A stretch of 64,000 nt of DNA from the NCBI GenBank assembly GCA_041917695.1, contig JAYRXE010000037.1, forward strand, positions 2,155 through 66,154, written 5' to 3'. The stretch's first letter is position 1. Every line of letters begins with the position of its first letter. The DNA comes from Minisyncoccota bacterium (GTDB lineage Bacteria; Patescibacteriota; Minisyncoccia; UBA6257; GWB1-50-10). Both the position numbers and the translations under genes were made by a program. This document shows positions 5,522 through 60,677 of the stretch, one piece after another. The notes below the pieces were generated by a model, which was not told the DNA's origin, did not search any database, and saw only the letters and a list, made by a program, of their open reading frames with translations.

Positions 5522-5543
5522 AACGGTTTCCACCGTGAAGATA

Positions 5544-42842: not shown

Positions 42843-42844
42843 GG

Positions 42845-44434: not shown

Positions 44435-44439
44435 GCGGC

Positions 44440-44652: not shown

Positions 44653-44656
44653 GAAT

Positions 44657-45022
44657 TTATTCTTTATAGAGCATCCGCCCGCTCGACGTGAAAAGGAAAT
44701 TTATAATTCCGATGAGTAACGACGAGTACAGGAGGGGCAAATACCCTTGTATTGTAAGAGGGGTGATGAAGAAGTCAAGAATCGCGAGCGTTATGGCGTT
44801 TATCACGATGAGGAACAGCCCGAAGGTGAGGAGAATAAGCGGGCCGAGGAGGAGCTTTAACACGGGACGGAGGAAGAGATTGATGACGGCGAGCGCCGCC
44901 GCGGCAATGCCAAGATCGGTGATATTTCCCGTGAAGGTGAATCCCGAGATGAACTGCGCGCACAGGTATATGGCGAGCATGTTCGAGAGAAACTGGAAGA
45001 CGAATTTCGCGATCAATTTCAT
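44657..45022 (-). CDS. YvlD/DUF360 family 4-TM membrane protein
   Basis: Hydrophobic 121-aa ORF. Confidence 0.55.
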   Translation of the reverse strand: MKLIAKFVFQFLSNMLAIYLCAQFISGFTFTGNITDLGIAAAALAVINLFLRPVLKLLLGPLILLTFGLFLIVINAITLAILDFFITPLTIQGYLPLLYSSLLIGIINFLFTSSGRMLYKE

Positions 45023-45045
45023 TAACGGGGTTTATTTCGTTTTCA

Positions 45046-45933: not shown

Positions 45934-46054
45934 GGGATGTGAACTTCTTCGTAGCGGTTTTTTAGCATTCTAGTTCTTTTGACACCCCTATGGAAGGGTC
46001 CTAAAATTAAAGTGCGAACACACATGTCGATATACACATCATTACTACACTTCC

Positions 46055-47578
46055 ATGGATTCCAGCACGCTTCTCGCGGTTGGCTCCGCGATCTTAGGGT
46101 TGGCGCTCGGGTACGGGGCGCGGTATTACCTAGCCCTCAAATCAAAGACTTCGGTCGAAGCTAAAGCGGGGGAAGAGCTCGAGAAAGCCCGTTCCCAGGC
46201 GAAAGAGATAGTCCTCGCGGCAAAAGACGAGGCGGCCGCCGTCGTTTTAGAAGTTCAGCGGGACGAACGGGAACGAAAAGCCGAGCTTCGCAGGCTTGAA
46301 GACCACCTTTTAAAGAAGGACGCCGCGATAGAGGCGAGCCAGGCTTCCGTCCGCGCCCTTGAAAAGCAGAAGCAGGACGAACTGAACCGCCTCGGCGAAC
46401 AAAAACGCGAAGTTGCCGAACTCCGCGAAAAAGCGCTCACGGAACTCGAGCGCGCCGCGGGGCTTTCGAAGGAAGAGGCGAAGGCCCGCATGTTTTCCGA
46501 GCTTGAACAGCACGCCCGCGAAGAGTTGCGGGAAAAAGTGATTCGCCTTGAGCGCGAAAAGCTCCAGGAGATCGAGGCGCGGAGCCTTGATATCATCACG
46601 TCGTCGCTCCAGCGGTACGCGCGGAGCTCGGTGAACGACATCACGACCTCCGTTGTGCATATTCCGAACGAGGAACTGAAGGGCAAGGTCATCGGCCGCG
46701 AGGGGCGCAATATCCGCACGTTCGAACGGCTTACGGGCGTCGAGGTGATCGTGGACGACACCCCTGACACCATTCTGCTTTCCTCGTTCGACCCGATGCG
46801 GCGCGAGCTCGCGAAGATCGCGCTTGAAAAACTTTTGAAAGACGGGCGCATTCAGCCCGCGAAGATCGAGGAAGCCGTCGAGGAGGCGCGCGAAGAGCTC
46901 GACCGCCACGTGCAGAAAGCGGGTGAGGATGCGGCGTACGACGTCGGCATCCTTGATTTCCCGAAGGAAATCCTCCATCTCCTGGGCCGCCTGAATTACC
47001 GCACGAGCTATGGGCAGAACGTCCTGAAGCACTCCGTTGAAATGGCCCACATCGCCGGCATGCTCGCATCGGAACTCCATGTGAATGTCGAAGTCGCGAA
47101 GCGCGGAGCCTTGGTGCACGATATCGGCAAGGCCATCGACCACGAGGTCGAAGGAACGCACGTCGAAATCGGCAGGAAGTTGCTGAAGAAATACGGCATT
47201 TCGGACGAGATTGTGAAGGCCATGGAAGCCCACCACGAGGAGTATCCTTTCTCGACTCCCGAGTCGTATATCGTCGCCGCCGCAGATGCCATCTCCGGCG
47301 CCCGGCCTGGCGCGCGGCGCGACACGCTCGAGAAATATTTGAAGCGCCTTGAGGACATCGAACGGGTGGTAAAAACGTTTGACGGCATTTCGCAGGCGTA
47401 TGCCGTATCCGCCGGCAGGGAAGTGCGCGTGTTCGTCACGCCGGAAAAGGTGGATGATTACGGAGCGCTCCAGCTCGCGAAGCAGATTGCCGCGAAAATC
47501 AAATCCGAACTCCGTTTCCCCGGGGAAATCAAAGTAATCGTCATCCGCGAGGTGAAGGCTGTCGAGTACGCCCGGTAG
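46055..47578 (+). CDS. rny: ribonuclease Y
   Basis: N-terminal TM helix, a coiled coil, a KH domain (GKVIGREGRNIRTFE) and an HD domain (LVHDIGK). Confidence 0.9.
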   Translation: MDSSTLLAVGSAILGLALGYGARYYLALKSKTSVEAKAGEELEKARSQAKEIVLAAKDEAAAVVLEVQRDERERKAELRRLEDHLLKKDAAIEASQASVRALEKQKQDELNRLGEQKREVAELREKALTELERAAGLSKEEAKARMFSELEQHAREELREKVIRLEREKLQEIEARSLDIITSSLQRYARSSVNDITTSVVHIPNEELKGKVIGREGRNIRTFERLTGVEVIVDDTPDTILLSSFDPMRRELAKIALEKLLKDGRIQPAKIEEAVEEAREELDRHVQKAGEDAAYDVGILDFPKEILHLLGRLNYRTSYGQNVLKHSVEMAHIAGMLASELHVNVEVAKRGALVHDIGKAIDHEVEGTHVEIGRKLLKKYGISDEIVKAMEAHHEEYPFSTPESYIVAAADAISGARPGARRDTLEKYLKRLEDIERVVKTFDGISQAYAVSAGREVRVFVTPEKVDDYGALQLAKQIAAKIKSELRFPGEIKVIVIREVKAVEYAR

Positions 47579-47732
47579 GAATAAAAAAATCACCCCCGAA
47601 GGGGGTGAAAATACCTTATTTACCAAGACGCTAAGACCACAACCCGTCTCTTATACTGTAAAAGGCTAGGATTTATGCTATTATTTCAGGGTAAAGCGAA
47701 GAAAGGTCGGCAAATTTATCACTAAAAACACC

Positions 47733-48008
47733 ATGAAGAAAGTAGGACTTGTAGAGGCGGTGCAGAAGGCCGCCGGGATTGAAACGAAGAAACAGGCGGA
47801 GCAGGCCGTCGAAGCCATGTTCGACACCATCGTAAAGTGCATGTCGAAGGGCGAAGAGGTCGCTATCACCGGTTTCGGCACGTTCCGTGTCGCGAAGCGC
47901 GCGGCACGCATGGGCGTAAACCCGAAGACGGGCGAAAAGATCCAGATTGCCGCGTCGACGAAGCCGAAGTTCCGCGCGGGCAAACTCCTCAAAGAGGCAG
48001 TCGCCTAA
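47733..48008 (+). CDS. hup: DNA-binding protein HU
   Basis: GFGTFRVAKRAARMGVNPKTGEKIQI. Confidence 0.9.
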   Translation: MKKVGLVEAVQKAAGIETKKQAEQAVEAMFDTIVKCMSKGEEVAITGFGTFRVAKRAARMGVNPKTGEKIQIAASTKPKFRAGKLLKEAVA

Positions 48009-48023
48009 GCGAAATTCCATTCG

Positions 48024-48056
48024 TAAACAAAAAGCCCCCTCGCGGGGGCTTTTTGT
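48024..48056 (+). terminator. intrinsic terminator after hup
   Basis: aaaaagccccctcgcgggggctttttgtc. Confidence 0.65.
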
Positions 48057-48065
48057 CATCCCGGG

Positions 48066-48965
48066 TTAGAGCGATCTCCTCACAAGATTGCTCATCTCGA
48101 TGAAGATCTGATAGGACTCTTTCACTTTCGCGAAAGAGGCGTCTACCGTCTCTTTTATCGAGGGGGATTGCATAGGGGGGGTGGGGGGAGTGGATGAACT
48201 CGAAGCGAGTTCTTTCTTTTCTTTTTCAGCCTTCATTTTTTCTTCTTTCAGCTCGGCTTCAATGGCGAGTTTTTCCTCGCTGCCGTCTTTCATGAAGGGA
48301 TAGAGGTAGCTTTTGGCGAATTGGCGTACGCCAGTATCGTTCATCGCGCGGGCGTCGCCGATGAGAGTCGAGGCTTTCTTAAGGCTTTCCTCAACTTCCT
48401 TTATTTTCTTGAATTTTGCCTTTTTGAGTTTCGCGACGTCGGCGGAAACCTTTTCAAGGCGGTTTTCGGCGGTCTCGAGGGATTTCTTATGCTGTTCAAG
48501 AAGCAGATAGGATTGCACTTCATCGAAAAGCGGGGTGTAGGTTTCTTCCCGCCATTTCTTCAGGTCTTCCGCGCGGAGCTTCACTTCGTCCACGGTGGGG
48601 TGCTCGATCATGTTCACGATGCGCGTCTCGTTTTCGTAATGCTTCACGGCGTCTTGGAGGGCCGCGATGCGGTTTTTCTTCCACACGGCGGTCGTGGTGG
48701 TCGTTTTGTCGTCCTCGTAAGCGAGGAGCTTTAAGCGCATGTCGCGGGCGTCCGTCGTCGCGAGCTCGAGCACCTTCTTGTAGGCGTCGAGGCGAGCCTC
48801 GCCTTCGCCTTCGTTTTTGTCTTTTGCGCCGATCAGGGCTTCAACGGTGTCCATTACGCCCTGGATCACCTTCTCGGCGGGGTTCGTCTGAGCCGATGCG
48901 GGAATCGCCGAAAAGGCGAATGAGGCGACCGTTGCGGAGAGGAGTATGAGGAGTTTTCGTGCCAT
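48066..48965 (-). CDS. secreted coiled-coil hypothetical protein (last gene of ECF sigma operon)
   Basis: Signal peptide MARKLLILLSATVASFAFSAIPASA and a K/E-rich coiled coil. Confidence 0.5.
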   Translation of the reverse strand: MARKLLILLSATVASFAFSAIPASAQTNPAEKVIQGVMDTVEALIGAKDKNEGEGEARLDAYKKVLELATTDARDMRLKLLAYEDDKTTTTTAVWKKNRIAALQDAVKHYENETRIVNMIEHPTVDEVKLRAEDLKKWREETYTPLFDEVQSYLLLEQHKKSLETAENRLEKVSADVAKLKKAKFKKIKEVEESLKKASTLIGDARAMNDTGVRQFAKSYLYPFMKDGSEEKLAIEAELKEEKMKAEKEKKELASSSSTPPTPPMQSPSIKETVDASFAKVKESYQIFIEMSNLVRRSL

Positions 48966-48966
48966 G

Positions 48967-49434
48967 TTAGAGGGTTACGTTTTCAAGCAGGCGATCGATT
49001 TCGTCATTCGCGGTGCCCGCTTTCTGGATATCATCGATCTCCGACTGGATCGGTCCTTCCTTCAAGTGGCTCACATTCGTATCGCGGATTTCCGTGATGG
49101 CGGCAGTGATCACTTCGTTCGTGTTATTTCGATAGTTTACCTCTTCAAGCTCGATGGAGATAGGGAGCTCAGCGGCTTCCTTCGAGAGCTTATCGGCATC
49201 TTTCAAAGAGGAGAGAGACGGGGAGCGGTACGAAGCAAGCAAGGGGACGGCGGCGATCAAAAACCCGGCCACGCCAAGACCAAGTCCGCGTACCCACGTG
49301 GGCTGGAAGCTGGGAAGCGAAAAGACGCTCCGTCTCGCGGGAGTGGAGACGATCGCAAAACGCGTACGCGCTTCAAAACCCCGGTCGGGGGCGATCGAGG
49401 CGAGCATTTTCAGTTTTCGCTTGATGGTTTCCAT
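48967..49434 (-). CDS. putative membrane anti-sigma factor
   Basis: Single TM helix. Its start immediately follows the stop of the ECF sigma. Confidence 0.45.
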   Translation of the reverse strand: METIKRKLKMLASIAPDRGFEARTRFAIVSTPARRSVFSLPSFQPTWVRGLGLGVAGFLIAAVPLLASYRSPSLSSLKDADKLSKEAAELPISIELEEVNYRNNTNEVITAAITEIRDTNVSHLKEGPIQSEIDDIQKAGTANDEIDRLLENVTL

Positions 49435-49989
49435 TTAATTATTTTCCCGGGGAGGGGTCTCCTCGAGTATTTTCTTCAGGCGCCGCAGGGCGCGGTGCTG
49501 GATGACCCGTATGGCCCCTTCGGTCTTCGCGAGGGAGTCCGAGATCTCCTTGTTTGAAAGTTCGTTCACGAATTTCATGATGACGACGCTTTGCTCGTCG
49601 TCGGTGAGAAGGCGGAGCGCTTCGCCGATGCGTTCCATTTCGATGGAGGTTTCGAGGTCGCGTTCAGCGTCCTCTTCGGCAATGCCGAGCTTCTCTTCTC
49701 CCACCGCCTCGATGTCCACGTAGGGCTTCGCGGTCCGGTAGAAGTCGATGACGGCGTTTGAGGCGATCTTGTAGAGCCAGCTCGAAAAGGGGACTCCTTT
49801 CGGCTTATAGCTTCCGATGTTCTTCCAGGCGTTCATGAACACCTGGTGCGCCAAGTCTTCCGCATTCTGTCGCTGGCCCACTTTGAGGTATACGAAACGG
49901 TAGATTTTCGCGATGTGCGCGTCGTACAGCTTTCCGAAGGACTCGGAATCGCCTTTCTGGGCCTTATAAATGAGCTCCGCTTCGTTCAT
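49435..49989 (-). CDS. RNA polymerase sigma-70 factor, ECF subfamily
   Basis: Region 2 (AEDLAHQVFMNAWKN) and region 4 (ISDSLAKTEGAIRVIQHRALRRLKK). Confidence 0.85.
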   Translation of the reverse strand: MNEAELIYKAQKGDSESFGKLYDAHIAKIYRFVYLKVGQRQNAEDLAHQVFMNAWKNIGSYKPKGVPFSSWLYKIASNAVIDFYRTAKPYVDIEAVGEEKLGIAEEDAERDLETSIEMERIGEALRLLTDDEQSVVIMKFVNELSNKEISDSLAKTEGAIRVIQHRALRRLKKILEETPPRENN

Positions 49990-50143
49990 ATTCTATAACG
50001 AGGCCTGTTCCGAAACGTTTCTTCAGGCTCCTTTCGGGGTGTAACGTTACAGATTTTTGCCTCATGCCAGGCAATTATACATGATTTTAGCCTTACCGAA
50101 ATCTTGCGCCGCATTCTCCGCTATGACACAATCAGAGACGTTC

Positions 50144-50217
50144 GCGGGATTCGTATAGTGGTAGTACGTCACCCTTCCAAGGTGAAGGCACGGGTTCAAT
50201 TCCCGTATTCCGCTCCA
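50144..50217 (+). tRNA. tRNA-Gly (anticodon TCC), CCA encoded
   Basis: GCGGGAT...ATTCCGC-T-CCA. Anticodon loop CTTCCAA. Confidence 0.85.
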
Positions 50218-50281
50218 GTTCTTTTCGGGAAGTTTGTTTTCCCGGCTTCCGCGTGATATACATAACTCCACTTAATTATTT

Positions 50282-50893
50282 ATGGACGAACAAGCAAAAA
50301 AGACCCTTCTCATACTTTCCCTCTCGCTCGTAGGCATCGTGGTGGCGCTTTCCGCGCTCGCTTTCGGTCTTCCGTACATCCAAAAGCGGGCACCGCTCCC
50401 GACAGGCTTTTCAGAATCGCGCTCACGGGCGGCAGAGATCAGCCGCGATATCGTTTCGCTTTCGAACGAGACGAACGACAAGGTGAAGGCTCTGAGCGCG
50501 CTCGATCCGAAGAAGGATAAGGCGCAAGCCACCGCCCTCGTCGCCGATGCAAAGGCGAAGAACAATGAGGCGTATGCGAAAGCCGTTGACCTTTCGAAGG
50601 AATTGGAAGGCATGTCGAATTCGTTCAAAGGCATCAAATCCCTCGACCTTCAGCGCATCATGTATGACGGCATCGCCGTAGAGATCGCGCTCGTAACGGA
50701 ATTCATCCAATACACGAAAGATTTCAATGGCTTCTTGGAAGCCGTATCCGCCTTCCTTGCCAATCCGACACCGGAGCACAAGCTTGCCGTGCAGGCGGGG
50801 GAGTCGGCGGTGAACACCCGCGTGACGAACATCAACCGCTTAAACGACGAATTCTTAAAGCGGATGGACGAGTTCGAGAAGGCACTTAAGTAG
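50282..50893 (+). CDS. membrane-anchored or secreted coiled-coil hypothetical protein
   Basis: N-terminal TM or signal sequence LLILSLSLVGIVVALSALAFG. Confidence 0.45.
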   Translation: MDEQAKKTLLILSLSLVGIVVALSALAFGLPYIQKRAPLPTGFSESRSRAAEISRDIVSLSNETNDKVKALSALDPKKDKAQATALVADAKAKNNEAYAKAVDLSKELEGMSNSFKGIKSLDLQRIMYDGIAVEIALVTEFIQYTKDFNGFLEAVSAFLANPTPEHKLAVQAGESAVNTRVTNINRLNDEFLKRMDEFEKALK

Positions 50894-50977
50894 CGCCTTC
50901 TTCGTGTTTTTTGACTAAAGCCATTTTTAGTGGCATTTTTTGTTTAGTTATTTTTTTAAAAATAGAAGGAGGCATAC

Positions 50978-51301
50978 ATGCCAAACGACTGGTTTTTGCT
51001 CGTTATTGGAAATGAGACCACTACAACATGCATGGGAGGGCACACTGAAACCGTAACGCAGGTGCATGTGGCATACGGAACCGATAAAGCAGTGAGGGAT
51101 TCCTTTACCAAAAAAGCCATTGCATTGAGAGACAGAAACAAGCAAAGGAAGCGGATCACTTTCCACGCTTCTATTAAGAGCGTCATCATCAAACGGCTTA
51201 CCAGCAATGGGGAAACTCTCCCTGAAAAAGAAATGGAAGAATTTGTAAGGGCTGCCGTAACTATGGATCCTGCGAAACTAAAGAAAGCATTAGCTAGCTG
51301 A
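50978..51301 (+). CDS. hypothetical protein (AT-rich)
   Basis: ORF with an AGGAGG RBS and a terminator at about 51311-51338. Confidence 0.4.
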   Translation: MPNDWFLLVIGNETTTTCMGGHTETVTQVHVAYGTDKAVRDSFTKKAIALRDRNKQRKRITFHASIKSVIIKRLTSNGETLPEKEMEEFVRAAVTMDPAKLKKALAS

Positions 51302-51337
51302 TAAGATCCCAAACTCCGCGTATGCGGGGTTTTTTAT

Positions 51338-51669
51338 TGGGCGTAGAAATTTCACGTCGCGGGGCTGGGGAATTGAACAATTCGCCCTTTCCCGTTCAAT
51401 TCACTCCTAGTCCTAAAACCCCGATCTGAAATATCGGGGTTCGGACGAACAAATCCGCCTTCAGGCGGATTTGTTTTAGTCGGGCTGCTGGGAATTTCAC
51501 GTCGTCCCGCCGAAGGCGTGACTCCTTGAGAACCGAGGGTTCTCAACCGCCAGTTGGCGGTCTCTCCGACACGGAAGGGACACATCCGTTTCCCTTCCGA
51601 CCCATCCCTCGTTCAATTCCCTAATTCAACAAACGCAAACGCAGGCTGAATGCCTGCGTTTGTATTTAG
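51338..51669 (-). repeat. two tandem tRNA-3'-flanking structured modules (module 1 about 51480-51669, decayed module 2 about 51338-51479)
   Basis: Module 1 is about 90% identical, in inverted orientation, to 58660-58852 and ends in GACGTGAAATTCCCAGCAGCCCGA. Module 2 ends in CGTGAAATTTCTACGCCCA. Confidence 0.7.
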
Positions 51670-51740
51670 TCGGGCTGCTGGGAATTGAACCCAGTCTACC
51701 TGCTCCCAAAGCAGGCGTACTACCGGTATACGACAGCCCG
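51670..51740 (-). tRNA. tRNA-Pro (anticodon TGG)
   Basis: CGGGCTG...CAGCCCG-A. Anticodon loop TTTGGGA. Outside the anticodon arm it is identical to the tRNA-Pro at 58589. Confidence 0.85.
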
Positions 51741-51751
51741 ATTAATAAATG

Positions 51752-53866
51752 CTATTCCCTGTGCAGGGTCTTCGCAAACTCAGTGATGCGGCGTTTTATC
51801 TCCGGCACCGTGTCGAGGCGGGGGTCGGTGCGGAGAATCTCGTCCGCGTATTCCTTCGCGTGCTTCAAAAGGCGGGGATTCTGGAGCGCCGACATCGCCA
51901 AATCGGGGAAGCCCGATTGCGAGAGCCCGAAGAGCTCGCCCGGCCCCCGGTCTTTCAAATCATACTCGGCGAGTTCAAAACCGTTTTTTGCTTTCTCAAG
52001 ATATCGGAGCCGTTCCTGGGTTTTCTCGTCCTCCTTTTCGGTGAAGAGGAGGCAATGCGATTGGTGCATGCCTCTCCCTACGCGGCCGCGAAATTGGTAA
52101 AGCTGGGCGAGGCCGAAGCGGTCGGCGTCTTCAACCATCATGACGGTCGCGTTCGGGACGTCGATGCCGACCTCGATGACCGACGTAGAGACCAGGATGT
52201 CGATTTTTCGCGCGGAAAAGTCTCCCATCACTTTCTCTTTCTCCGCCGGCTTCATCTTCCCATGCAGCATGCCCACGCGAAGATCAGGGAAGGTTTTCTT
52301 TGCAAGCTTTTCGTACTCGAGCTTCACAGACTTCGCTTCAAGGGTCGCTTCCTCCTTTTCGGTGAGAGGAGCGGCTTCCGGAGGCTCGATGCGGGGACAA
52401 ATCACAAATGCCTGTCGGCCCGTCGCAATTTCTTTTTTGATGAATTCATATGCTGATTTCCGCTCATCCTTCGGTACGAGCCTCGTCTCAATCGGTTTGC
52501 GGTCTTTCGGCAGCTCGGTGATGAGTGAGAGATCAAGGTCTGCAAAAAGCACGAGGGACATCGTGCGGGGAATCGGCGTTGCGGACATCGAAAGGAAATG
52601 CGGCACGACTTTGCCGGTTTCAGCTTCGAGAAGCTTGGCGCGCTGGGAAACGCCGAAGCGGTGCTGTTCGTCCACGACGGCGAGCACGAGGTTTTTGAAC
52701 GCGCTCCGGCGGTTCAAGAGGGCGTGGGTGCCCACGACGATCTTCACCGCGCCTTTTTTGATTTCCTTTTCGAGCGCGGGCTTTGTCATCACGGTTTCAA
52801 GCCCTGCGCCGTAGAAGACGCGCGCTTCCGAGGCGGTGAGGAGCGCGATACCCGTTTCAAGTTCGCCGAAAAGGCGGGTGAGATTTCCGTAATGCTGGCG
52901 TGCGAGGATTTCCGTCGGCGCCATCATCGCGGCCTGGAAGCCTTTTTGGGCGGCAAGTACGGCGGCAAGCGCTGCAACGATGGTCTTTCCGCTTCCCACG
53001 TCTCCCTGCAGCAGGCGGTGCATGGGGAAGCCTCTTCCCAAGTCTTTTACCGTTTCCCACAAGGCGTGCTTTTGCGATTCCGTGAGCTCGAATGGCACGA
53101 GCTTCAAGAGTTCTTTGATCTCCTCTGTCTCTATCGGAAGCGGGAACGCTTTCTTCGCCTCTATCCTTTTTCGCTCAAGTCCCATATGGACGGAAAGCGT
53201 GAGGAGCTCCTCAAAGGCGAATCGCGCTTTTGCATGATAGGCAGCGGCAAGATTTTCGGGAAAATGGATGGCGCGCAGCGCATCTTCCCGTCCCGGCAAA
53301 TTTTCCTTTTCGAGCATCTCCACCGGCAGGGTTTCGGGTACGCGCACGTGGTTCAAGATCGGCTGAACGATGAAGCGGATGCCGCGGGAAGTCAGTCCCT
53401 TCGTTTCGCGGTAGACGGGGACGATGCGCGCGGTGTGCTTAGTGGATTCGTTTTCAGAAGGCTCGTAGAGTGGGTTGGTGAGCTGGATGCGCCCGTCTTT
53501 TTCGGTGACGCGCCCGGCGAAATTCGCGTGCGCTCCCTTGGGAAGGGATTTCGCCACATACGATTGGTTGAACCATACGATGGAGAGCTTGCCGGTGCCG
53601 TCCGAGATCCGCGCTTCCGTGATCGTCATGCGCCTCCGCCAGATCTTCCGGAGCTCGATCTTTTCAACGATGCCGCTTACCGTACAGGACGTTCCGGCCG
53701 TGAGTTCGGCAATGGGCGTGATTCGCGAAAAGTCCTCATAGCGATAGGGGAAGTGGAAGAAAAGGTCTTTCACGGTCTCGACCCCCAGTTTTTTGAGCCG
53801 CTCGGCAAAATAGCCGCGCATGGATTTCAGCTGTGCAATGGGAGTTTCGAGGGAGATGAGCGGCAT
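51752..53866 (-). CDS. recG: ATP-dependent DNA helicase RecG
   Basis: Wedge domain, Walker A GDVGSGKT, DEQHRFG and helicase C motifs. The product is 704 aa. Confidence 0.92.
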   Translation of the reverse strand: MPLISLETPIAQLKSMRGYFAERLKKLGVETVKDLFFHFPYRYEDFSRITPIAELTAGTSCTVSGIVEKIELRKIWRRRMTITEARISDGTGKLSIVWFNQSYVAKSLPKGAHANFAGRVTEKDGRIQLTNPLYEPSENESTKHTARIVPVYRETKGLTSRGIRFIVQPILNHVRVPETLPVEMLEKENLPGREDALRAIHFPENLAAAYHAKARFAFEELLTLSVHMGLERKRIEAKKAFPLPIETEEIKELLKLVPFELTESQKHALWETVKDLGRGFPMHRLLQGDVGSGKTIVAALAAVLAAQKGFQAAMMAPTEILARQHYGNLTRLFGELETGIALLTASEARVFYGAGLETVMTKPALEKEIKKGAVKIVVGTHALLNRRSAFKNLVLAVVDEQHRFGVSQRAKLLEAETGKVVPHFLSMSATPIPRTMSLVLFADLDLSLITELPKDRKPIETRLVPKDERKSAYEFIKKEIATGRQAFVICPRIEPPEAAPLTEKEEATLEAKSVKLEYEKLAKKTFPDLRVGMLHGKMKPAEKEKVMGDFSARKIDILVSTSVIEVGIDVPNATVMMVEDADRFGLAQLYQFRGRVGRGMHQSHCLLFTEKEDEKTQERLRYLEKAKNGFELAEYDLKDRGPGELFGLSQSGFPDLAMSALQNPRLLKHAKEYADEILRTDPRLDTVPEIKRRITEFAKTLHRE

Positions 53867-53913
53867 ACCCTCTAGTTTTAGCAGATTTCAGCCCCCTTTC
53901 CGAGAAAGCGCCG

Positions 53914-54234
53914 ATGTGCTTCCATGGTGAGAGCAGGATTCACAATCTATTCTCAGAAAGGAGTTGTTGCCCTATGGCACTCTGGAAATTGTTTGTATTG
54001 TTTTTTGCCGCACTCGCCATATCCATTCTTAACGGCGCATGCGGTCCGGGAGTGTGGTGCGGAAACGCGCTGCATGACCATTCGGTGCGCGCGATCCCGG
54101 GAGGAACGAATACCTTCTTCTTCAACCCCGAAATTCCCGAAGGCGAAGACCATATCGCCATTCCTGAATTCCCTCCGGAAGAATTTTTTGAGGAACCCGA
54201 TGCGATTGACGATATCGACATGAAAAATATTTGA
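53914..54234 (+). CDS. small secreted hypothetical protein with acidic C-terminus
   Basis: Hydrophobic stretch MALWKLFVLFFAALAISILNGA is signal-peptide-like. The alternative start at about 53974 is more likely. Confidence 0.4.
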   Translation: MCFHGESRIHNLFSERSCCPMALWKLFVLFFAALAISILNGACGPGVWCGNALHDHSVRAIPGGTNTFFFNPEIPEGEDHIAIPEFPPEEFFEEPDAIDDIDMKNI

Positions 54235-54376
54235 ATACCAAAATCCCCCAGCGGGGGATTTTTATTCTTGCCAAATGGAAAGAGTGTGGTATGGTTTTTC
54301 ATAGCACTTCAGCGGTAACGCTGGAGATAACATACCAATTATTCATTAACTTTTAACCCAGTGGAGAAGAATCCCG

Positions 54377-54691
54377 ATGAGAAAATTAATCACTTCGGGG
54401 CTCCTTTTCCTGGTTTGCCTCTTCGTCATGGGAGTAAGCGCGTATTCGTCGGGCAAGGGCGATGTGATCGTTGGCGGGTTTGCCGATGATGATATCCTTG
54501 CCGGAATAACGCAGACAAAACCGTACGGAGAAATGCAAAACCCGGAAAAGATGTGCTCACCGCCCGAAACGGCGAACATTACCAACCCGATGGTTGGGGT
54601 CACAAAAGTTTCAGGTAATATCCAGGGTGCCGTTTCGGCAGGCGAGAGGGGGACAGAGGTGGCGTACGCCACAGAACTTGCTCTTTGCTGA
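54377..54691 (+). CDS. small secreted hypothetical protein
   Basis: Signal peptide MRKLITSGLLFLVCLFVMGVSAYS. Confidence 0.45.
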   Translation: MRKLITSGLLFLVCLFVMGVSAYSSGKGDVIVGGFADDDILAGITQTKPYGEMQNPEKMCSPPETANITNPMVGVTKVSGNIQGAVSAGERGTEVAYATELALC

Positions 54692-54860
54692 AATAACATC
54701 CAGTAATGAATAAAAAAATTAAAGGCACGATGCCTTTAGGGTTTATCCCAAGAAAGAAGCGCTCTCCTATTATGTACGGAGGCGCTTTTTATTTTTGACA
54801 ATACCGCCCGCGTAGCGTACAAAGAGGCGAGTATTTCAATAATTTTAAAAGGAGGTTCAG

Positions 54861-55268
54861 GTGTTCGGTCTCAATAAGAAAGGGGCGGTGAAAGTCCTTG
54901 ATCCAAAGGCGGATTATTCAAATCTTTGGCATTTTAATGACGATTTTCACGTTATTAAGGTTTTGGATATTTCAGAAAGATTCGAATCGAAAGCGGGAGA
55001 AATCATTCTTCTTTATGGAGCGCGGGGAAGGGACACGGAAGCGTTTTTTCTAAAATTCGGTACGGGATCTACTTATTGTCCGTTAACTTCTCAATTCGAT
55101 TATTATTTGGCAGAAAGGCTATATTGGCTTGTAGATATTCTCGGCTCGGATTCTTCTTCTTTTTATGATTTTATTCAATTTCACCGCCCGCCGACGGAGA
55201 GATGGGTGCATGCCATAAGTCCTTTTTTCGGCATCACGGACAGCACGTACATGAAAAGTTACATTTAA
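54861..55268 (+). CDS. hypothetical protein (AT-rich)
   Basis: AAAGGAGG RBS and a GTG start. Confidence 0.4.
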   Translation: MFGLNKKGAVKVLDPKADYSNLWHFNDDFHVIKVLDISERFESKAGEIILLYGARGRDTEAFFLKFGTGSTYCPLTSQFDYYLAERLYWLVDILGSDSSSFYDFIQFHRPPTERWVHAISPFFGITDSTYMKSYI

Positions 55269-55363
55269 ACGCCCTCCGGGGCGTTTTTATTGCGAATTTT
55301 CCGGGGTGTGCTATAAAAAGGCCACAGTAAACCGTTTAACAAATTAATCCGAGAAAGGTACAG

Positions 55364-55621
55364 GTGACTCTGATGGCACGCATCAAAATTTCTTACCGCC
55401 ACATCGTGCGCGGCATTCTCACGATGATTTGCGGCATTGCGCTCTTTGTTTCGCTGGAACTGGCGCAAATCGCTTCATGCATGACGACACTGGAAGATAC
55501 TCATTTTTCAAATCCGCACCAGGTTGCCCCGATCGAAAGGATTGTTCCCAACGTTCAGGGACATGTTTTTCCGAAACCGACCGGGACACGGATAGAATTG
55601 CATGCACGCAGTAATTGCTGA
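55364..55621 (+). CDS. small hypothetical membrane protein
   Basis: One TM helix. Confidence 0.3.
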   Translation: MTLMARIKISYRHIVRGILTMICGIALFVSLELAQIASCMTTLEDTHFSNPHQVAPIERIVPNVQGHVFPKPTGTRIELHARSNC

Positions 55622-55750
55622 TTTTGTTTCATGCTGTTACCTCTTATTAATTGTTTTACCTCCGATTGGCGCCCTCTGTGGGCGCCTTTTTCTTGAAAAA
55701 GTTCCCCGGCTATTCTAATCTAACGAAAGTCCTTCAGAAGCGGTTTTATC

Positions 55751-55823
55751 GCCCCGTTAGCTCAGTTGGTAGAGCAGTTGCCTCTTAAGCAAACGGTCCT
55801 AGGTTCGAGCCCTAGACGGGGCA
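55751..55823 (+). tRNA. tRNA-Lys (anticodon CTT)
   Basis: GCCCCGT...ACGGGGC-A. Anticodon loop CTCTTAA. Confidence 0.85.
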
Positions 55824-55963
55824 CACCGTGCATTTTATTCCAGAGCTCGAACCCGTATGGGGTCGGGAGCGGCGGAACGCTCCCGCGGAGGAATGCATGC
55901 CTGCGTAGGCAGGCATTGAAAACCGTGGGTTTTCAACTCCGTGAGATTGCCCTAGACGGGGCA
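55824..55963 (+). repeat. tRNA-Lys 3'-flanking structured module ending in a copy of the tRNA-Lys 3' end
   Basis: It contains hairpin gcatgcctgcgtaggcaggcat and hairpin TTGAAAACCgtgGGTTTTCAA, then CCGTGAGATTGCCCTAGACGGGGCACAC, which repeats the tRNA 3' end at 55811-55826. Confidence 0.7.
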
Positions 55964-56005
55964 CACTTTTCGCTTTCAATCCCTCTTCTTGTAGGATAAA
56001 CATGC

Positions 56006-56079
56006 GTCCTCGTAGCTCAACTGGATAGAGTACTTGGCTTCGAACCAAGAGGTTGCAGGTTCAAGTCCTGCCGAGGACA
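56006..56079 (+). tRNA. tRNA-Arg (anticodon TCG)
   Basis: GTCCTCG...CGAGGAC-A. Anticodon loop CTTCGAA. Confidence 0.8.
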
Positions 56080-56095
56080 CCCTATTCTCAGCCGT

Positions 56096-57574
56096 ATGAA
56101 AAAAGAAGCCGATATCGCGATTCCGCGTCCCGTGGTGGATGCGGCGAGCGCCCTTATCCACAAGGGCTATCAGGCGTATCTGGTCGGGGGGTCCGTGCGC
56201 GATATGGCACGGGGCATTGCGCCGAAGGATTACGATATCGCGACCGACGCCCTGCCGGAAGATGTGCTTAAAATTTTCCCCGACGGGAAATATGAAAATT
56301 CATTCGGCACGGTCCTCGTTAAAACCGGTTCAGACGATGAAACGGTAAAGATCCTTGAAGTCACCACGTTCCGCATCGAAGGCAAATACTCCGATTTCCG
56401 CCGCCCGGATGACGTGACGTTTGCAAAGACCATCGAGGAGGATCTCTCGCGGCGCGATTTCACGGTGAATGCGCTCGCGCTCGATCTTTCGCCACAGGGG
56501 AGCGGGGAGATCGTCGACCCGTTCGGCGGAAGAGATGATTTGGAAAATGGCCTCATCCGCGCCGTCGGGAATCCCGACGACCGTTTCACTGAAGATGCCT
56601 TGCGTCTCATCCGTGCCGTGCGTTTTGCCGTCGCGCTCGATTTCGCTATCGAGAAAGAGACCTTTTCGGCCCTGGTGGGCCGCGCACCGCTACTCGAAAA
56701 AGTCGCGAAAGAGCGCATCCGCGACGAGTTCCAGAAAATCATCATGACTCCCCGCGCTGCGGATGGCGTAGTGCTCCTCGAGGAAGCGGGACTCCTTCGG
56801 TACGTGATGCCGGAACTCCGGGAGGGAATCGGATGCGCGCAGAATAAGCACCATATCTATACCGTTTTCGAGCATAACGTGAAGGCGCTCGAGTATGCGG
56901 CGCAAAAGGGCTTTTCGCTTGAGGTTCGCCTTGCGGCACTGATGCATGACATCGGGAAACCTCGCACGAAGCGTGGGCAGGGAGCTGACGCGACCTTCTA
57001 TAATCACGAGATGGTCGGCGCGCGGATGGCGAAAGAGATTCTCACGAGGCTTGCGTTTTCCTCGGCAACCATCGAAAAGGTGCGGCATCTTATCCGTTAC
57101 CACATGTTCTATTACAACGTGGGCGAGGTTTCCGCTTCAGGCGTACGCCGTTTCCTCGCGCGCGTCGGGAGCGAGCATATCGACGACATCATGCGCGTCC
57201 GCGAAGCGGACCGCATCGGCAGCCACGTGCCGAAGGCGTTCCCGTACAAATTGCGGCATCTGATGTTCATGATAGAAAAGGTCCGGCACGACCCCGTGCA
57301 TCCGAAGATGCTCGTCGTGAAAGGCGACGACGTGATGAAGTTCCTTGGCATTCCCGCCGGCCCGAAGGTGGGTCAGGTGCTTTCCGTACTCCTTGAGGAT
57401 GTACTCGACGATCCCTCGCGGAATACCCGGGAATATCTTGAGCCGCGTGTCCGCGAACTCGGAAGCCTAACCGACGAGGAGCTTGTGAAGCGGATGCAGG
57501 ATGCCAAAGAGCGCGCCCGCGAAGCCGAAGAAGAGACGGAGGAAGAAATGAAGCGGAAGTTCAAGGTACAATAA
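56096..57574 (+). CDS. cca: CCA-adding tRNA nucleotidyltransferase with HD domain
   Basis: Pol-beta-like head GGSVRDMARGIAPKDYDIAT and HD motif LMHDIGK. This matches the absence of encoded CCA on most tRNAs here. Confidence 0.88.
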   Translation: MKKEADIAIPRPVVDAASALIHKGYQAYLVGGSVRDMARGIAPKDYDIATDALPEDVLKIFPDGKYENSFGTVLVKTGSDDETVKILEVTTFRIEGKYSDFRRPDDVTFAKTIEEDLSRRDFTVNALALDLSPQGSGEIVDPFGGRDDLENGLIRAVGNPDDRFTEDALRLIRAVRFAVALDFAIEKETFSALVGRAPLLEKVAKERIRDEFQKIIMTPRAADGVVLLEEAGLLRYVMPELREGIGCAQNKHHIYTVFEHNVKALEYAAQKGFSLEVRLAALMHDIGKPRTKRGQGADATFYNHEMVGARMAKEILTRLAFSSATIEKVRHLIRYHMFYYNVGEVSASGVRRFLARVGSEHIDDIMRVREADRIGSHVPKAFPYKLRHLMFMIEKVRHDPVHPKMLVVKGDDVMKFLGIPAGPKVGQVLSVLLEDVLDDPSRNTREYLEPRVRELGSLTDEELVKRMQDAKERAREAEEETEEEMKRKFKVQ

Positions 57575-57580
57575 GAGCAT

Positions 57581-58147
57581 ATGCGGAACGCCATCAAGAT
57601 ACTTCTTTTTGCCGATGCGTGGTGCGGTTTCGCGCTCGGTATGATCGGGCCTATTTACGCGATCTTCGTGGAAGGCATCGGCGGGAGCATCTTGGATGCG
57701 AGCTGGGCGTACTTCGCCTTCATGGTTTCGCAAGGACTCGCGCTTTTCGCGCTCGGTCACGCCGAAGACCGCACGATCCGCCGGGAGCGCTACGTGACGG
57801 GCGGATATGCGCTTATTGCCTTGAGCTGCCTGATGTACTTGGTGGTGTACGACCAAACGACGCTCGTTATCACGCAGGTCGTCGCCGGCCTTGGCGGAGC
57901 CGTGCTTTCTCCCGCGTTCGATTCGCTCTACGGCGAACACGTCGATAAAAAACATGAGGCCTCGGAGTGGGGGTATTGGGAGGGGATGGGGTATCTCGTC
58001 ACCGCCGCGGGCGCCATCACCGGGGGATACATCGCACATCTCTACGGATTTCGGACGCTTTTCCTCTACATGTTTGCCGTTTCTTTTGTGAGTGTCCTTG
58101 TTTCCCTAAATTTGTGGCGGGGCGAAAAGTATTTAGCCAATCATTAA
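57581..58147 (+). CDS. half-size (6-TM) MFS-like membrane protein
   Basis: Six predicted TM helices and an MFS motif-A-like GHAEDRTIRRER after TM2. It is only 188 aa. Confidence 0.45.
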   Translation: MRNAIKILLFADAWCGFALGMIGPIYAIFVEGIGGSILDASWAYFAFMVSQGLALFALGHAEDRTIRRERYVTGGYALIALSCLMYLVVYDQTTLVITQVVAGLGGAVLSPAFDSLYGEHVDKKHEASEWGYWEGMGYLVTAAGAITGGYIAHLYGFRTLFLYMFAVSFVSVLVSLNLWRGEKYLANH

Positions 58148-58152
58148 CGACC

Positions 58153-58584
58153 ATGAAAGTACGCATCAAACGGTTTGATACCGAACTTCCGCTTCCCGAA
58201 TACAAAACTTCCGGGGCAGCCGCTTTCGATTTGACCGCGCGTGAAGAAGTGACGATAGCACCCCATGTGATCGGTTACGTACCGCTAAACGTCGCCATCG
58301 AGACCCCGGAAGGATATTTTCTTCTTATCGCCGCCCGAAGCGGTACTCATAAGCGGGGACTTATGCTCTCAAATGGAATTGGGATTATCGACCCCGACTA
58401 TTCGGGGGACAATGACGAGGTGATCGCCGCTTACTTTAATTTTACGGAAACCCCTGTTATAGTGGAGCGCGGAGAACGGATCGCTCAAGGAACATTCATA
58501 AAGATCGAGAGGGGGATTTGGCAGGAGGAAAAATCCATGCCAAACAAAAACCGCGGCGGATTTGGCTCCACAGGACATAAATAA
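58153..58584 (+). CDS. dut: dUTP diphosphatase
   Basis: AARSGTHKRGLMLSNGIGIIDPDYSGD dUTPase motifs. Start taken at the internal ATG (MKVRIKR). Confidence 0.88.
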   Translation: MKVRIKRFDTELPLPEYKTSGAAAFDLTAREEVTIAPHVIGYVPLNVAIETPEGYFLLIAARSGTHKRGLMLSNGIGIIDPDYSGDNDEVIAAYFNFTETPVIVERGERIAQGTFIKIERGIWQEEKSMPNKNRGGFGSTGHK

Positions 58585-58588
58585 TCAT

Positions 58589-58659
58589 CGGGCTGTCGTA
58601 TACCGGTAGTACGCACGCTTCGGGTGCGTGTAGACTGGGTTCAATTCCCAGCAGCCCGA
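58589..58659 (+). tRNA. tRNA-Pro (anticodon CGG)
   Basis: CGGGCTG...CAGCCCG-A. Anticodon loop TTCGGGT. Starts 4 nt after the dut stop. Confidence 0.85.
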
Positions 58660-58852
58660 CTAAATACAAACGCAGGCTGAATGCCTGCGTTTGTGTTTGT
58701 TGAATTAGGGAATTGAACGAGGGATGGGTCGGAAGGGAAACGGATGTGTCCCTTCCGTGTCGGAGAGACCGCCAGCCGGCGGTTGAGAACCGAGGGTTCT
58801 CAAGGAGTCCCGCCTTTGGCGGGACGACGTGAAATTCCCAGCAGCCCGACCA
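58660..58852 (+). repeat. tRNA-Pro 3'-flanking structured module (four hairpins) ending in GACGTGAAATTCCCAGCAGCCCGACCA
   Basis: Hairpins: aaacgcaggctgaatgcctgcgttt, ggaagggaaacggatgtgtcccttcc, ccgccagccggcgg, ttgagaaccgagggttctcaa and cccgcctttggcggg. Then comes a T-loop-like motif and a copy of the acceptor 3' strand. An inverted copy is at 51480-51669. Confidence 0.75.
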
Positions 58853-58967
58853 ATAATCTAAAAGCCGCCTTAAGGCGGCTTTTAGATTAGAAAATTTGCC
58901 TCATTTTTGCTTTTCCTGTATGACAAAGGCAGAAATATTAACGTTTTAAAACGAAAGAGAGGGATAC

Positions 58968-59759
58968 GTGGAAAACCTATTTTCCAAGCTTTTCAAGGAT
59001 TCAAAGATCATTATCGGAATGTTGCATATCTTGAACGGCAATAAATCCGTTGATGAGATCACCGAAGATGTTTTGAACGATTTGTACATCTATAAAGGAC
59101 GGGTGCACGGCGCCATCGTTGAGAATTACGGATGGGGAGGCGGGAATTCGTACCGCGCAAACCCGCGCGTTGAAGAAATCCTCACGAAGGTTACGAAAGC
59201 GGCAGTTACCGCAGGCGGTTCGAATTTTGTCATCGGCGTGAACGTGCTTCCGAATGATTACAAAATGGCTTTCCGTATCGCGCGGAACGCCGGCGCGGAA
59301 TTCATACAGCTTGATTATGTGGCAGGGGCGTACGAAGGAAGCGATTTGACCGAATGGGATGATTTCATGAAAGAACGCGAGCGTTGCGCCGATATCGCCG
59401 TATTAGGCGGAATATACCCCAAGTACTACCGCCCTACGAAGGAGTCTCCTTCATTCATACGCTCTGCTTTTGACGCAATGGACCGCGCGGACGCAATCGT
59501 GATAACCGGAGAAAAGACCGGCGGCGAGGCGAATCAGAAGGATATTGAAACACTGAACCGCTATCCCGAACTGAAACCTTTCCCGAAAATAATCGGGAGC
59601 GGAATGACCGCTACGAACCTCCGCCTGCTTGATGGCGTGCGGGGCGCCATCGTGGGAAGTTATTTCAAGACCGATGGGAAGGTTAATTTCGGGAGCCGCG
59701 TTGAAGAAGGCCGCGTAGAAAAATTCATGGAAGCGCTTACCAGGCGTTTCACGCTCTAA
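58968..59759 (+). CDS. BtpA/SgcQ family TIM-barrel protein
   Basis: IIIGMLHIL...GAIVENYG is a family signature. The product is 263 aa. Confidence 0.6.
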   Translation: MENLFSKLFKDSKIIIGMLHILNGNKSVDEITEDVLNDLYIYKGRVHGAIVENYGWGGGNSYRANPRVEEILTKVTKAAVTAGGSNFVIGVNVLPNDYKMAFRIARNAGAEFIQLDYVAGAYEGSDLTEWDDFMKERERCADIAVLGGIYPKYYRPTKESPSFIRSAFDAMDRADAIVITGEKTGGEANQKDIETLNRYPELKPFPKIIGSGMTATNLRLLDGVRGAIVGSYFKTDGKVNFGSRVEEGRVEKFMEALTRRFTL

Positions 59760-59783: not shown

Positions 59784-60677
59784 TTATTTTCCTTTCTTGT
59801 GGAGCGCCAAAAACTCGAGCGGTATCAAAAGCCCGTTCGAAAGGAAGACGAAAGCGGCGGGACCCACGAGCGCGGGAGCGCCGAAGAGGGTAAGCACGAT
59901 CACGGATGAGACCGTGAAGTTTTTTGAAATGGCGACGATGGTCCACGTGATCTTTTCCCGCTTTTTCCGCCCGAAGGCGAAGCCCGCGACCGCTTGGACG
60001 AGAAGAAGGACGAAGACGACGCCGAGCGCAATCCAAAATTCATGGGGATTCGCGCGTATCGCCGCGCTTGCCGGAGCCATGGTCGCCCAAATGAGGAGAA
60101 AGAGCAGGAATTCATTCGTCCACCCGGATTTTTTGAGAATGGGCCCGTCCCATCCGAAATGCCTCGCGATTTGCGCGAGGATGAGCGGGATGAAGACCAA
60201 TTTTGCGATAAGGAGCATCATGTCAGTCGCGTGGATGGATACCTCGGTATGCGCGAAAAACCAAACGAGAAACGGCGTCGCAAGCGGCGCGACGATGTGG
60301 GCGAGGGTGGTGCCGACGAGCGCTTTGTGAGGCTCGCCGCCAAGCACGTCCGAAAGGAAGACGACGGCAATCGCCGTCGGGGCCGCCGCAATCACCATCA
60401 GCCCGATGAACGACATGTCCGAAAGGAATCCCTTTGCCGCAAAGACCGTGAGCGTCGGCAAAACAAAGACGATGAGAAGCAGAATGAGGTATTTCCAAGC
60501 TTCCCGTTCGGCGAGGGCGATGTCTTTCATGCTGATCTTGAGGCAGGAGAAGAACATCATAAGCGCAAGCGGGTAGATGAGGTACGGCTTCAAGGGGAGG
60601 ACGGGACCGGGCAGGAAAAAGCCGAGCGCGATGCCGAGAAGGATGAAGAGGCCGAAATATTTCCGGATGTTTCGCAT
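59784..60677 (-). CDS. putative Na+-dependent transporter (BASS/SBF-like), 8-9 TM
   Basis: Polytopic membrane ORF of 297 aa. Family assignment is tentative. Confidence 0.4.
   Translation of the reverse strand: MRNIRKYFGLFILLGIALGFFLPGPVLPLKPYLIYPLALMMFFSCLKISMKDIALAEREAWKYLILLLIVFVLPTLTVFAAKGFLSDMSFIGLMVIAAAPTAIAVVFLSDVLGGEPHKALVGTTLAHIVAPLATPFLVWFFAHTEVSIHATDMMLLIAKLVFIPLILAQIARHFGWDGPILKKSGWTNEFLLFLLIWATMAPASAAIRANPHEFWIALGVVFVLLLVQAVAGFAFGRKKREKITWTIVAISKNFTVSSVIVLTLFGAPALVGPAAFVFLSNGLLIPLEFLALHKKGK

Follow-up and report, generated by a model that had tools for sequence, protein, structure and literature searches.

Inversion of a chromosomal segment between inverted repeats is textbook biology, and rrn operons, insertion sequences (IS) and duplicated tRNA genes can all act as the repeats. 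The 3′ ends of tRNA and tmRNA genes are, moreover, reportedly occupied by integrative elements, as Williams is said to have set out in 2002. Elements integrated at such ends are bounded by attL and attR with a partial copy of the tRNA (PMC9897764). Both kinds of system bear on a locus in a 64,000-nt stretch of DNA (hereafter the window) from a Minisyncoccota bacterium (assembly GCA_041917695.1, contig JAYRXE010000037.1, positions 2,155-66,154, forward strand), the source genome being uncultured and ~0.7 Mb in size. Here two tRNA-Pro genes, each followed by a 193-nt module, form an inverted repeat around a segment that carries recG and cca. Comparison with relatives shows that the segment between the two tRNA-Pro genes flipped at least once in this clade, as a historical event, and that the module is a member of a family found after tRNA and tmRNA genes in Patescibacteria, its presence varying between strains and species.

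The best inverted pair in the window has arms of 272 nt that are 92% complementary and 6834 nt apart; the runner-up is only 31 nt long at 74%. Each arm consists of a tRNA-Pro gene and its module, with the tRNA-Pro genes in divergent orientation:

51476-51747, minus strand: left arm, comprising tRNA-Pro(TGG), 7 nt upstream of it and module 1
58582-58853, plus strand: right arm, comprising tRNA-Pro(CGG), 7 nt upstream of it and its module
51669-51740, minus strand: tRNA-Pro(TGG), chimeric, CCA not encoded (ARAGORN and Rfam)
58589-58660, plus strand: tRNA-Pro(CGG), CCA not encoded (ARAGORN and Rfam)

Mismatches between the arms number 22, of which 14 fall in the module (mostly within loops of hairpins), six in the anticodon arm and two in the stretch upstream of the tRNA; the three longest stretches free of mismatches measure 80, 48 and 33 nt.

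The window was compared with contigs from Logan, JGI and genome and metagenome collections, which are labelled here by L-numbers. In a tblastx comparison with contig L288, from a sister species, L288 1-9748 is colinear with window 41883-50905, L288 9751-13825 corresponds to window 58694-51660 and is therefore inverted, and L288 14309-15202 is again colinear, with window 59784-60677. The order in L288 is tRNA-Gly, a gene for a 203-amino acid (aa) protein (plus), a terminator, tRNA-Pro(CGG), cca, tRNA-Arg and tRNA-Lys (all minus), recG and tRNA-Pro(TGG) (both plus), a terminator, a 124-aa gene and SBF (both minus) and tRNA-Ala. This opposite orientation occurs in contigs, the longest of 38 kb, of five independent samples or Logan assemblies (L288-L292), which carry a homologue, 68% identical, of the 203-aa protein encoded left of the repeat in the window. 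Two contigs from another sample (L293 and L164) are the two halves of the L288 arrangement. The left junction is as in the window in L162 and L163, whose RecG is 70% identical. The order recG then tRNA-Pro(TGG) is kept in every close relative examined.

RecG relatives in the protein database reach 61-70% identity. The closest RecG sequences in species-level collections, from Patescibacteria (Paceibacterota/Jorgensenbacteria-like), are more distant (at most 55%), and loci found through them were too distant for synteny and were used for the module census described below. In L288-type genomes tRNA-Pro(CGG) adjoins the left flank and recG with tRNA-Pro(TGG) adjoins the right flank. Both tRNA-Pro genes thus moved with the segment, and each kept its anticodon and its inner neighbour, which locates the breakpoints immediately 3′ of these genes, at the positions that the modules occupy in the window.

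The two tRNA-Pro genes of the window match at 66 of 72 positions, whereas in L288 they match at ~48 of 72. The anticodon arm of the window tRNA-Pro(TGG) (CCTGCTTTGGGAGCAGG) is identical to that of its orthologues in L162 and L163, and its acceptor, D and T arms are those of tRNA-Pro(CGG); the latter gene scores 68.5/72 against its counterpart in L288. An anticodon arm typical of tRNA-Pro(TGG) within a gene that otherwise resembles tRNA-Pro(CGG) shows that the former was overwritten by the latter on both sides. The sequences thus support gene conversion from tRNA-Pro(CGG) to tRNA-Pro(TGG) that spared the anticodon arm, and the chimeric gene bears out the conversion proposed in a preliminary description of the locus.

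With dnaA (330-1697) and dnaN (1889-2995) at its start and a positive GC skew throughout, the window extends from the origin into one replichore, the plus strand being the leading one. The inverted-repeat segment lies ~50 kb from this presumed origin on the leading-strand side, and an inversion does alter its orientation relative to the origin, as the preliminary description had anticipated. That description had also suggested that the repeat geometry could allow homologous inversion, to be checked by synteny and GC skew. The first check, with the segment inverted in the sister species and both flanks colinear, upholds the idea as a historical flip (the L288-L292 synteny), though not the repeats as its cause, nor any recent or ongoing flipping. 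The second gives no indication of a recent flip, since the skew inside the segment (+0.047) is the same as in the flanks.

The bracketed and neighbouring genes are as follows:

50144-50217, plus strand: tRNA-Gly(TCC), with the same T-loop as tRNA-Pro and no module in the window
51752-53866, minus strand: recG (Pfam)
55751-55824, plus strand: tRNA-Lys(CTT) (ARAGORN)
56006-56081, plus strand: tRNA-Arg(TCG), without a module (ARAGORN)
56096-57574, plus strand: cca, tRNA nucleotidyltransferase (Pfam)
57581-58147, plus strand: 188-aa half-size MFS protein (Pfam)
58153-58584, plus strand: dut, dUTPase (Pfam)

The preliminary description had thus correctly recognized the inverted pair of tRNA-Pro genes with modules and, between the arms, recG, tRNA-Lys, tRNA-Arg, cca, the half-MFS gene and dut. 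It had also listed four genes for small secreted proteins. Three of the small open reading frames (ORFs) between recG and tRNA-Lys (86, 104 and 82 aa) do have hydrophobic, signal-like N-termini, but the fourth (135 aa, GTG start) does not, and the Logan assembly has no gene call for it. The start it gave for the region, 51338, takes in a second, decayed module copy at ~51337-51449 on the minus strand.

The signal-peptide genes (53914-55621) are absent from L288 and L164, where recG abuts tRNA-Lys, and are a lineage-specific insertion within the invertible segment. Single tRNA genes have also changed direction. The tRNA-Gly(TCC) gene is co-oriented with the 203-aa gene in the window and divergent from it in L162, L163, L288 and L295, and tRNA-Pro(TGG), promoter included, has opposite directions in L162 and L163; in this clade inversions of single tRNA genes seem to be frequent. 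A Pfam scan covering the larger ORFs of 49-62 kb and selected ORFs of at least 120 aa elsewhere, with ORFs lacking a Pfam match left uncharacterized, revealed no integrase, transposase, reverse transcriptase or invertase among the scanned ORFs of the window. Further from the repeat, 36526-40011 (plus strand) encodes a 1161-aa class I aminoacyl-tRNA synthetase (Pfam tRNA-synt_1) with a His_Phos_1 domain inserted at residues 503-663. The tRNA-synt_1 family covers the Ile, Leu, Met and Val enzymes, and we take this one to be presumably isoleucyl-tRNA synthetase-like.

The Pro modules are built in a fixed order: a terminator-like hairpin, a reverse complement of the T-loop region (hereafter anti-T), the unit GGGTCGG-hairpin-CCGTGTCGGAG, three hairpins, a direct copy of the tRNA 3′ end and a second terminator-like hairpin. 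The parts and the related modules of the window are:

51636-51662, minus strand: terminator-like hairpin right after tRNA-Pro(TGG)
51611-51621, minus strand: anti-T GGGAATTGAAC, exact reverse complement of tRNA positions 53-63 (the T-loop and the start of the 3′ T-stem strand)
51497-51610, minus strand: core of module 1, GGGTCGG-hairpin-CCGTGTCGGAG followed by three hairpins
51475-51496, minus strand: direct copy of the tRNA 3′ end (AATTCCCAGCAGCCCGACTAAA), starting from T-loop position 57
51337-51449, minus strand: decayed tandem module, with anti-T-like GTGAATTGAAC, a T-arm fragment and GACGTGAAATTTCTACGCCCAAT
58661-58853, plus strand: module after tRNA-Pro(CGG), 93% identical to module 1, with hairpin 58667-58693, anti-T 58708-58718, core 58719-58832 and 3′-end copy 58833-58853
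58855-58888, plus strand: second terminator-like hairpin after the tRNA-Pro(CGG) module
55825-55967, plus strand: shorter family module after tRNA-Lys, with anti-T GCTCGAACC at 55845-55853 and 3′-end copy GCCCTAGACGGGGCACAC at 55949-55966
32729-32885, minus strand: family member directly 3′ of the tmRNA gene (32886-33218)

The hairpin at 51636-51662 appears to resemble the terminator that follows tRNA-Pro in relatives lacking the module. The Pro 3′-end copy (AATTCCCAGCAGCCCGAC...) runs from T-loop position 57 to a few bases past the discriminator. At the other loci the copied parts follow the local gene: anti-T and 3′ copy of the tRNA-Lys module match tRNA-Lys, and the tmRNA module has a hairpin, an 18-nt anti-acceptor/anti-T GGAGATATGGAGTTGAAC, the core and a 17-nt copy (TCCCACCATCTCCACAG) of the tmRNA 3′ end. 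The resulting direct repeats of the 3′ end measure 18-22 nt at both tRNA-Pro genes, 18 nt at tRNA-Lys and 17 nt at tmRNA. The T-loop part of the tmRNA module copy reads AATT, as in tRNA-Pro and tRNA-Gly, where tmRNA itself has AACT, which suggests that this module came from a site of the Pro/Gly type.

Two of the five hairpins have loops that are reverse-complemented between the Pro modules, namely 51636-51662/58667-58693 (ATTCA vs TGAAT) and 51526-51546/58783-58803 (CTC vs GAG). The flipped loops read alike on the plus strand of the genome in all copies, whatever the orientation of the module, and this includes a copy after tRNA-Gly in the sister contig L169 that is described below.

How widespread are such modules? 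In ~2.3 Mb of mostly Patescibacteria loci, the reverse complement of a tRNA's own T-loop (at least 9 nt) lies within 200 nt downstream of 24 of 204 tRNAs, as against one of 204 upstream. A copy of the tRNA's own 3′ end is located 138-208 nt downstream of 16 of 222 tRNAs, and matches to the 3′ end found upstream or on the reverse strand are all explained by adjacent paralogous tRNAs. A structured module of roughly 130-190 nt follows about one tRNA in ten in the sampled Patescibacteria loci, and one also follows tmRNA. The anti-T tracks the host sequence, with 9-19 nt complementary in Ala, Met, Lys, Ser, Gly, Pro and tmRNA; several tRNA-Ser isoacceptors are among the hosts, and the longest anti-T sequences (up to 16-19 nt) cover the 3′ strand of the acceptor. 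The direct copy mostly begins 2-6 nt into the T-loop, is 13-111 nt long and in fresh cases takes in the tRNA trailer or terminator.

The genome itself has at least five module loci, to which tRNA-Gly is added in sister strains. A covariance model of the module matches 3′ of tmRNA (window 32742-32842, E=3e-8) and also finds members after tRNA-Ala(CGC) in L171, just past the window end, after tRNA-Ala in L003 and after tRNA-Met in L010 and L002. A full-text literature search found no description of such modules, only background on tRNA gene fragments (PMC9897764).

Other repeats of tRNA 3′ ends were seen in the sampled loci. After tRNA-Phe in a Saccharibacteria metagenome-assembled genome (L078, 18932-19420), a 208-nt unit occurs in tandem, 111 nt of it nearly identical, and consists of the tRNA 3′ end, a terminator and the start of a module. 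A different and smaller kind of duplication is found at tRNA-Ile(TAT) in L017 (7639-7770), L025 and L101, where a 16-17-nt spacer is followed by a 31-41-nt copy of the tRNA's own 3′ half that begins in the anticodon loop. L104 and L109 carry 1.1-kb repeats of the tRNA-Ile 3′ end, and the ORFs between them, inspected by eye as translations with no Pfam scan made, have no integrase-like features.

Three known RNA classes were considered for the module and rejected. A hepatitis delta virus (HDV)-like ribozyme was prompted by the GGGUCGG motif; a conserved complementary 3′ strand of P1 is lacking, as is a match in Rfam. A group I intron in the T-loop is contradicted by the absence of an Intron_gpI match and by an upstream tRNA copy that is complete without splicing. 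In the case of a bulge-helix-bulge (BHB) tRNA intron, the junction sequences, on inspection, cannot form that motif, and again the upstream tRNA is complete.

The modules come and go between close relatives. L169 and L167, which come from two additional samples and share 97-99% identity with the window, have a module after tRNA-Gly(TCC) that is 94-95% identical to the tRNA-Pro(CGG) module and is bounded by a perfect 33-nt direct repeat (AATTCCCGTATTCCGCTCCAGTTCTTTTCGGGA), with a GGGA microhomology at the junction in L169; the window and L165 have no module at this gene, and L162 and L163 have a different one. The T-loop GGGTTCAATTCCC is common to tRNA-Gly and both tRNA-Pro genes, so that one anti-T fits all three. 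Among orthologues of tRNA-Pro(TGG), the window and L296 have the full module, L162 a remnant (anti-T and GGAAGGGATG) and L164 and L288 none. The family is probably mobile, and a mobile family that follows tRNA genes is the simplest reason for the same 193 nt at two differently oriented tRNA-Pro genes; the preliminary description had not placed the module in such a family.

At tRNA-Met the module is direct in L010 and in opposite orientation in L002. The L002 copy (5508-5650) abuts the tRNA-Met 3′ end, with no duplication of that end and with the T-arm complement at its far side. In L296 (2560-2600), past the tRNA-Pro(TGG) module and its 3′ copy, there is a further 3′ fragment of a different tRNA (GGTTCGATTCTCCATCCGCCA), which is consistent with successive insertions at one site.

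What links the modules to the flip and the conversion? The explanation that we favor as a whole, and consider probable, is that module pairing lies behind both the inversion and the conversion, the family spreading among tRNA and tmRNA genes. The inverted tRNA-Pro/module repeats would have recombined by the homologous, RecA-type route and so inverted the segment, with a crossover 3′ of the anticodon, hence each anticodon would have stayed with its side of the segment, and pairing of the same repeats would have given the gene conversion. The modules may have reached both tRNA-Pro genes and tRNA-Gly of the sister strains through the common T-loop matched by the anti-T. Most speculatively, the module could spread as a folded single-stranded hairpin, of RNA or single-stranded DNA (ssDNA), whose closing stem would imitate the duplex between T-loop and 3′ end of the target; insertion would then duplicate the target from T-loop position ~57 to the insertion point. 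The order found is complete gene, trailer, inverted arm, apical core and direct arm, with the duplication anchored in the T-loop and its other end variable. By analogy, such a layout would be open to explanation by integration of a folded single-strand hairpin, as in CTXphi and integron attC, or by target-primed copying.

Carried to its full extent, this proposal is that the modules are an undescribed class of non-autonomous mobile elements of Patescibacteria which home in on the T-loop/3′ end of genes for tRNA and tmRNA, bear a guide-like reverse complement of the T-loop, duplicate the target from ~57, probably by way of a folded RNA or ssDNA hairpin, and plant inverted repeats that drive inversions and tRNA conversion. 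We put it forward tentatively, as more apt to fail in some part than to hold throughout.

A serious rival, though we think it unlikely to be the right one, sees in the module an RNA domain with a function in the tRNA 3′ trailer, passed on vertically and at times lost; it might pair with the T-loop, for example, or be a minihelix-like RNA on which RNase P, RNase Z and the CCA-adding enzyme act. The inverted repeat would then be no more than two related tRNA transcription units. A trailer RNA would account for modules that lie only on the tRNA-sense downstream side, for the fidelity of each anti-T to its own host tRNA and for copies with no terminator between tRNA and module (tRNA-Gly in L163 and L169). 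It also fits the Pro modules folding far more strongly than shuffled sequence (z-scores -8.4 and -10.8) and the conservation of hairpin pairing through compensatory changes. The latter was seen with a covariance model made from three near-identical copies with a structure written by hand; in MAFFT alignments of divergent members the hairpin strands were out of register. Pairing in the model-fitted alignment, a procedure that favors the model's own structure, extends to 94% of cells, whereas slid controls do not exceed 61%; both partners have changed in 26 of 38 pairs, and none of 500 shuffles attains these values.

Several observations are difficult to reconcile with an RNA domain, however. 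A strong terminator-like hairpin precedes most copies, tandem and decayed copies exist, and presence differs between strains that are 97-99% identical, together with a perfect 33-nt target duplication. In Rfam 15 only tRNA and tmRNA pass the gathering threshold across the whole window, and the modules (51300-59000) have no credible match at E<=10. G-T pairs are as rare as A-C pairs (6 vs 6 of 328 cells), with no sign of the strand-specific wobble tolerance of an RNA. This rarity, the L002 copy that lies opposite to its tRNA and the loops flipped between the Pro copies, small as the numbers are, speak for strand-symmetric palindromes of a DNA-like kind and against a single functional strand of RNA.

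A second alternative, which we regard as doubtful, accepts the flip and makes the modules bystanders: the inversion would have taken place between tRNA-Pro genes that were once more alike, or by another mechanism acting at highly transcribed sites, and the modules would have been inserted later. Genomes of the L288 type are inverted without any module, modules are gained and lost quickly, and single tRNAs have flipped without a full module (tRNA-Pro(TGG) in L163 vs L162; tRNA-Gly in the window vs all relatives), all of which speaks for this alternative. Against it, a module or remnant is found at the recG-linked tRNA-Pro(TGG) in the window, L162 and the more distant L296, and is thus probably old in the clade; the breakpoints fall just 3′ of the tRNAs, where modules sit; and the tRNA genes alone offer only ~31 nt of common 3′ sequence, even in the homogenized genome of the window.

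Several points also weigh against the explanation that we favor. The opposite-orientation genomes L288 and L164 have no modules, and hence no hybrid repeats, and their tRNA-Pro genes are dissimilar (~48/72), so that the presence of the repeats at the time of inversion cannot be shown. Nor can the direction of the inversion be polarized, since the flanking genes of L295 and L296, the outgroups, lack window homologues; the GC skew in L288 is likewise too weak for this purpose. The junctions differ by extra genes, a 107-aa ORF (50978-51301) and BtpA (58968-59759) in the window, both absent from L288, and a 124-aa gene in L288, which places the breakpoints only to intervals just 3′ of the tRNAs and not to the nucleotide. 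To these points must be added the uniform and equilibrated skew of the segment, the covariation measured on an alignment fitted to its own model and a proposed mobility with no enzyme identified for it among the Pfam-scanned ORFs. The same-species contigs described next, in which the opposite orientation does not occur, also count on this side.

The idea that the modules are scars of phages or integrative and conjugative elements, integrated at tRNA 3′ ends and reduced to DNA next to attL and attR by loss of the interior, is very unlikely. In its favor, elements of this kind classically leave a whole tRNA and, downstream, a repeat of its 3′ end as attL/attR; they also classically target tmRNA and typically accrete in tandem (PMC9897764). 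An att site does not, however, include an inverted copy of the T-arm, and the sizes of the modules are tightly clustered at 125-210 nt, not scattered, with an interior that is conserved and structured across different tRNAs and genomes. There is no integrase among the scanned ORFs, and blastn of phage records gave no match to the module. A degenerate core pattern had 115 matches in the viral contigs of IMG/VR, about the chance number as estimated by hand without a shuffled control, and none of the 115 adjoins a tRNA in the right orientation.

Least credible of all is a programmed reversible switch, or a window orientation that is an assembly artefact of the repeat: short-read assemblies do break exactly at both arms and leave the orientation ambiguous, but the Pfam-scanned ORFs nearby include no recombinase, the segment contains housekeeping genes, the GC skew is uniform and the left arm is bridged, in the window orientation, by two independent JGI contigs of other samples. 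The Logan contig L001/L170 (6990 nt) is 100% identical to window 51670-58659, exactly between the repeats, and the neighboring contigs L165 and L171 end inside or just short of the modules; short-read contigs that break at the arms carry no orientation information. The two bridging contigs, L166 (98.8% identical) and L169 (97-99%), have the arrangement 203aa-107aa-module-Pro(TGG)-recG. No same-species contig has the opposite orientation, although only two bridge an arm (2/2 window-like). The present orientation would seem to be fixed or nearly so, and not a programmed switch.

What does the flip mean for the cell? The inversion is an ordinary kind of event, and it alters which of the tRNA genes, and which of recG and cca, are codirectional with replication and which are opposed to it. 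The repeat unit is the more unusual part. If mobile, the module would target the sequence that is most conserved in any genome in a new manner, and would be a source of rearrangement and tRNA homogenization in genomes regarded as containing little mobile DNA. Should it prove to be a functional trailer RNA instead, it would point to an unrecognized step of tRNA or tmRNA biogenesis in Patescibacteria.

Among known systems, inversion between rrn operons, IS or duplicated tRNA genes is matched by inverted copies with runs of 80, 48 and 33 nt, by a segment found in both orientations among relatives with colinear flanks and by repeats that have been gene-converted. It differs in that the unit here is a tRNA gene with an undescribed 193-nt module, that the isoacceptors are different and that both orientations have been seen between species and, with two bridging contigs, not within one population. 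A site-specific invertible switch differs in its recombinase, of which the scanned ORFs contain none. With the integrative elements of tRNA genes the modules have in common a complete gene followed by a 3′-end copy from the T-loop/T-stem, the use of a tmRNA site and tandem accretion with older, decayed copies farther from the gene. The insert, however, is 125-210 nt, with no room for an integrase or any gene; the module has an inverted T-loop copy and covarying hairpins; and the duplication, of 13-111 nt, may include the tRNA terminator.

Repetitive extragenic palindromes (REP), bacterial interspersed mosaic elements (BIME) and MITEs (miniature inverted-repeat transposable elements) such as Correia, RUP and ERIC are likewise small, non-coding, hairpin-rich and strand-symmetric palindromes in intergenic 3′ regions, of mosaic composition, with several copies per genome and differences in presence between strains. 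In contrast, the modules are strictly at the 3′ flank of tRNA and tmRNA genes, and no REP-associated tyrosine transposase (RAYT) or other transposase was identified. Unlike in a MITE, the terminal inverted repeat of the module (anti-T vs 3′ copy) is host tRNA sequence and varies by tRNA, and there is no target-site duplication of fixed length (13-111 nt).

The last two comparisons concern sequence layout. Short and long interspersed elements (SINE/LINE), which move by target-primed reverse transcription, belong to eukaryotes and have an A-tail, whereas the modules are prokaryotic, lack such a tail and have no reverse transcriptase in the scanned ORFs of the window; the likeness lies in a non-autonomous, tRNA-related element with a variable duplication anchored at one end and microhomology at the junction. 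Integron attC sites and CTXphi attP(+) at dif differ in that no recombinase was identified here and that the element is only ~150-200 nt long. What they have in common with the modules is an imperfect palindrome whose stem reproduces the target duplex, and the sequence of site, linker, inverted arm, apical region and direct arm would be that expected of a single-strand hairpin integration product.

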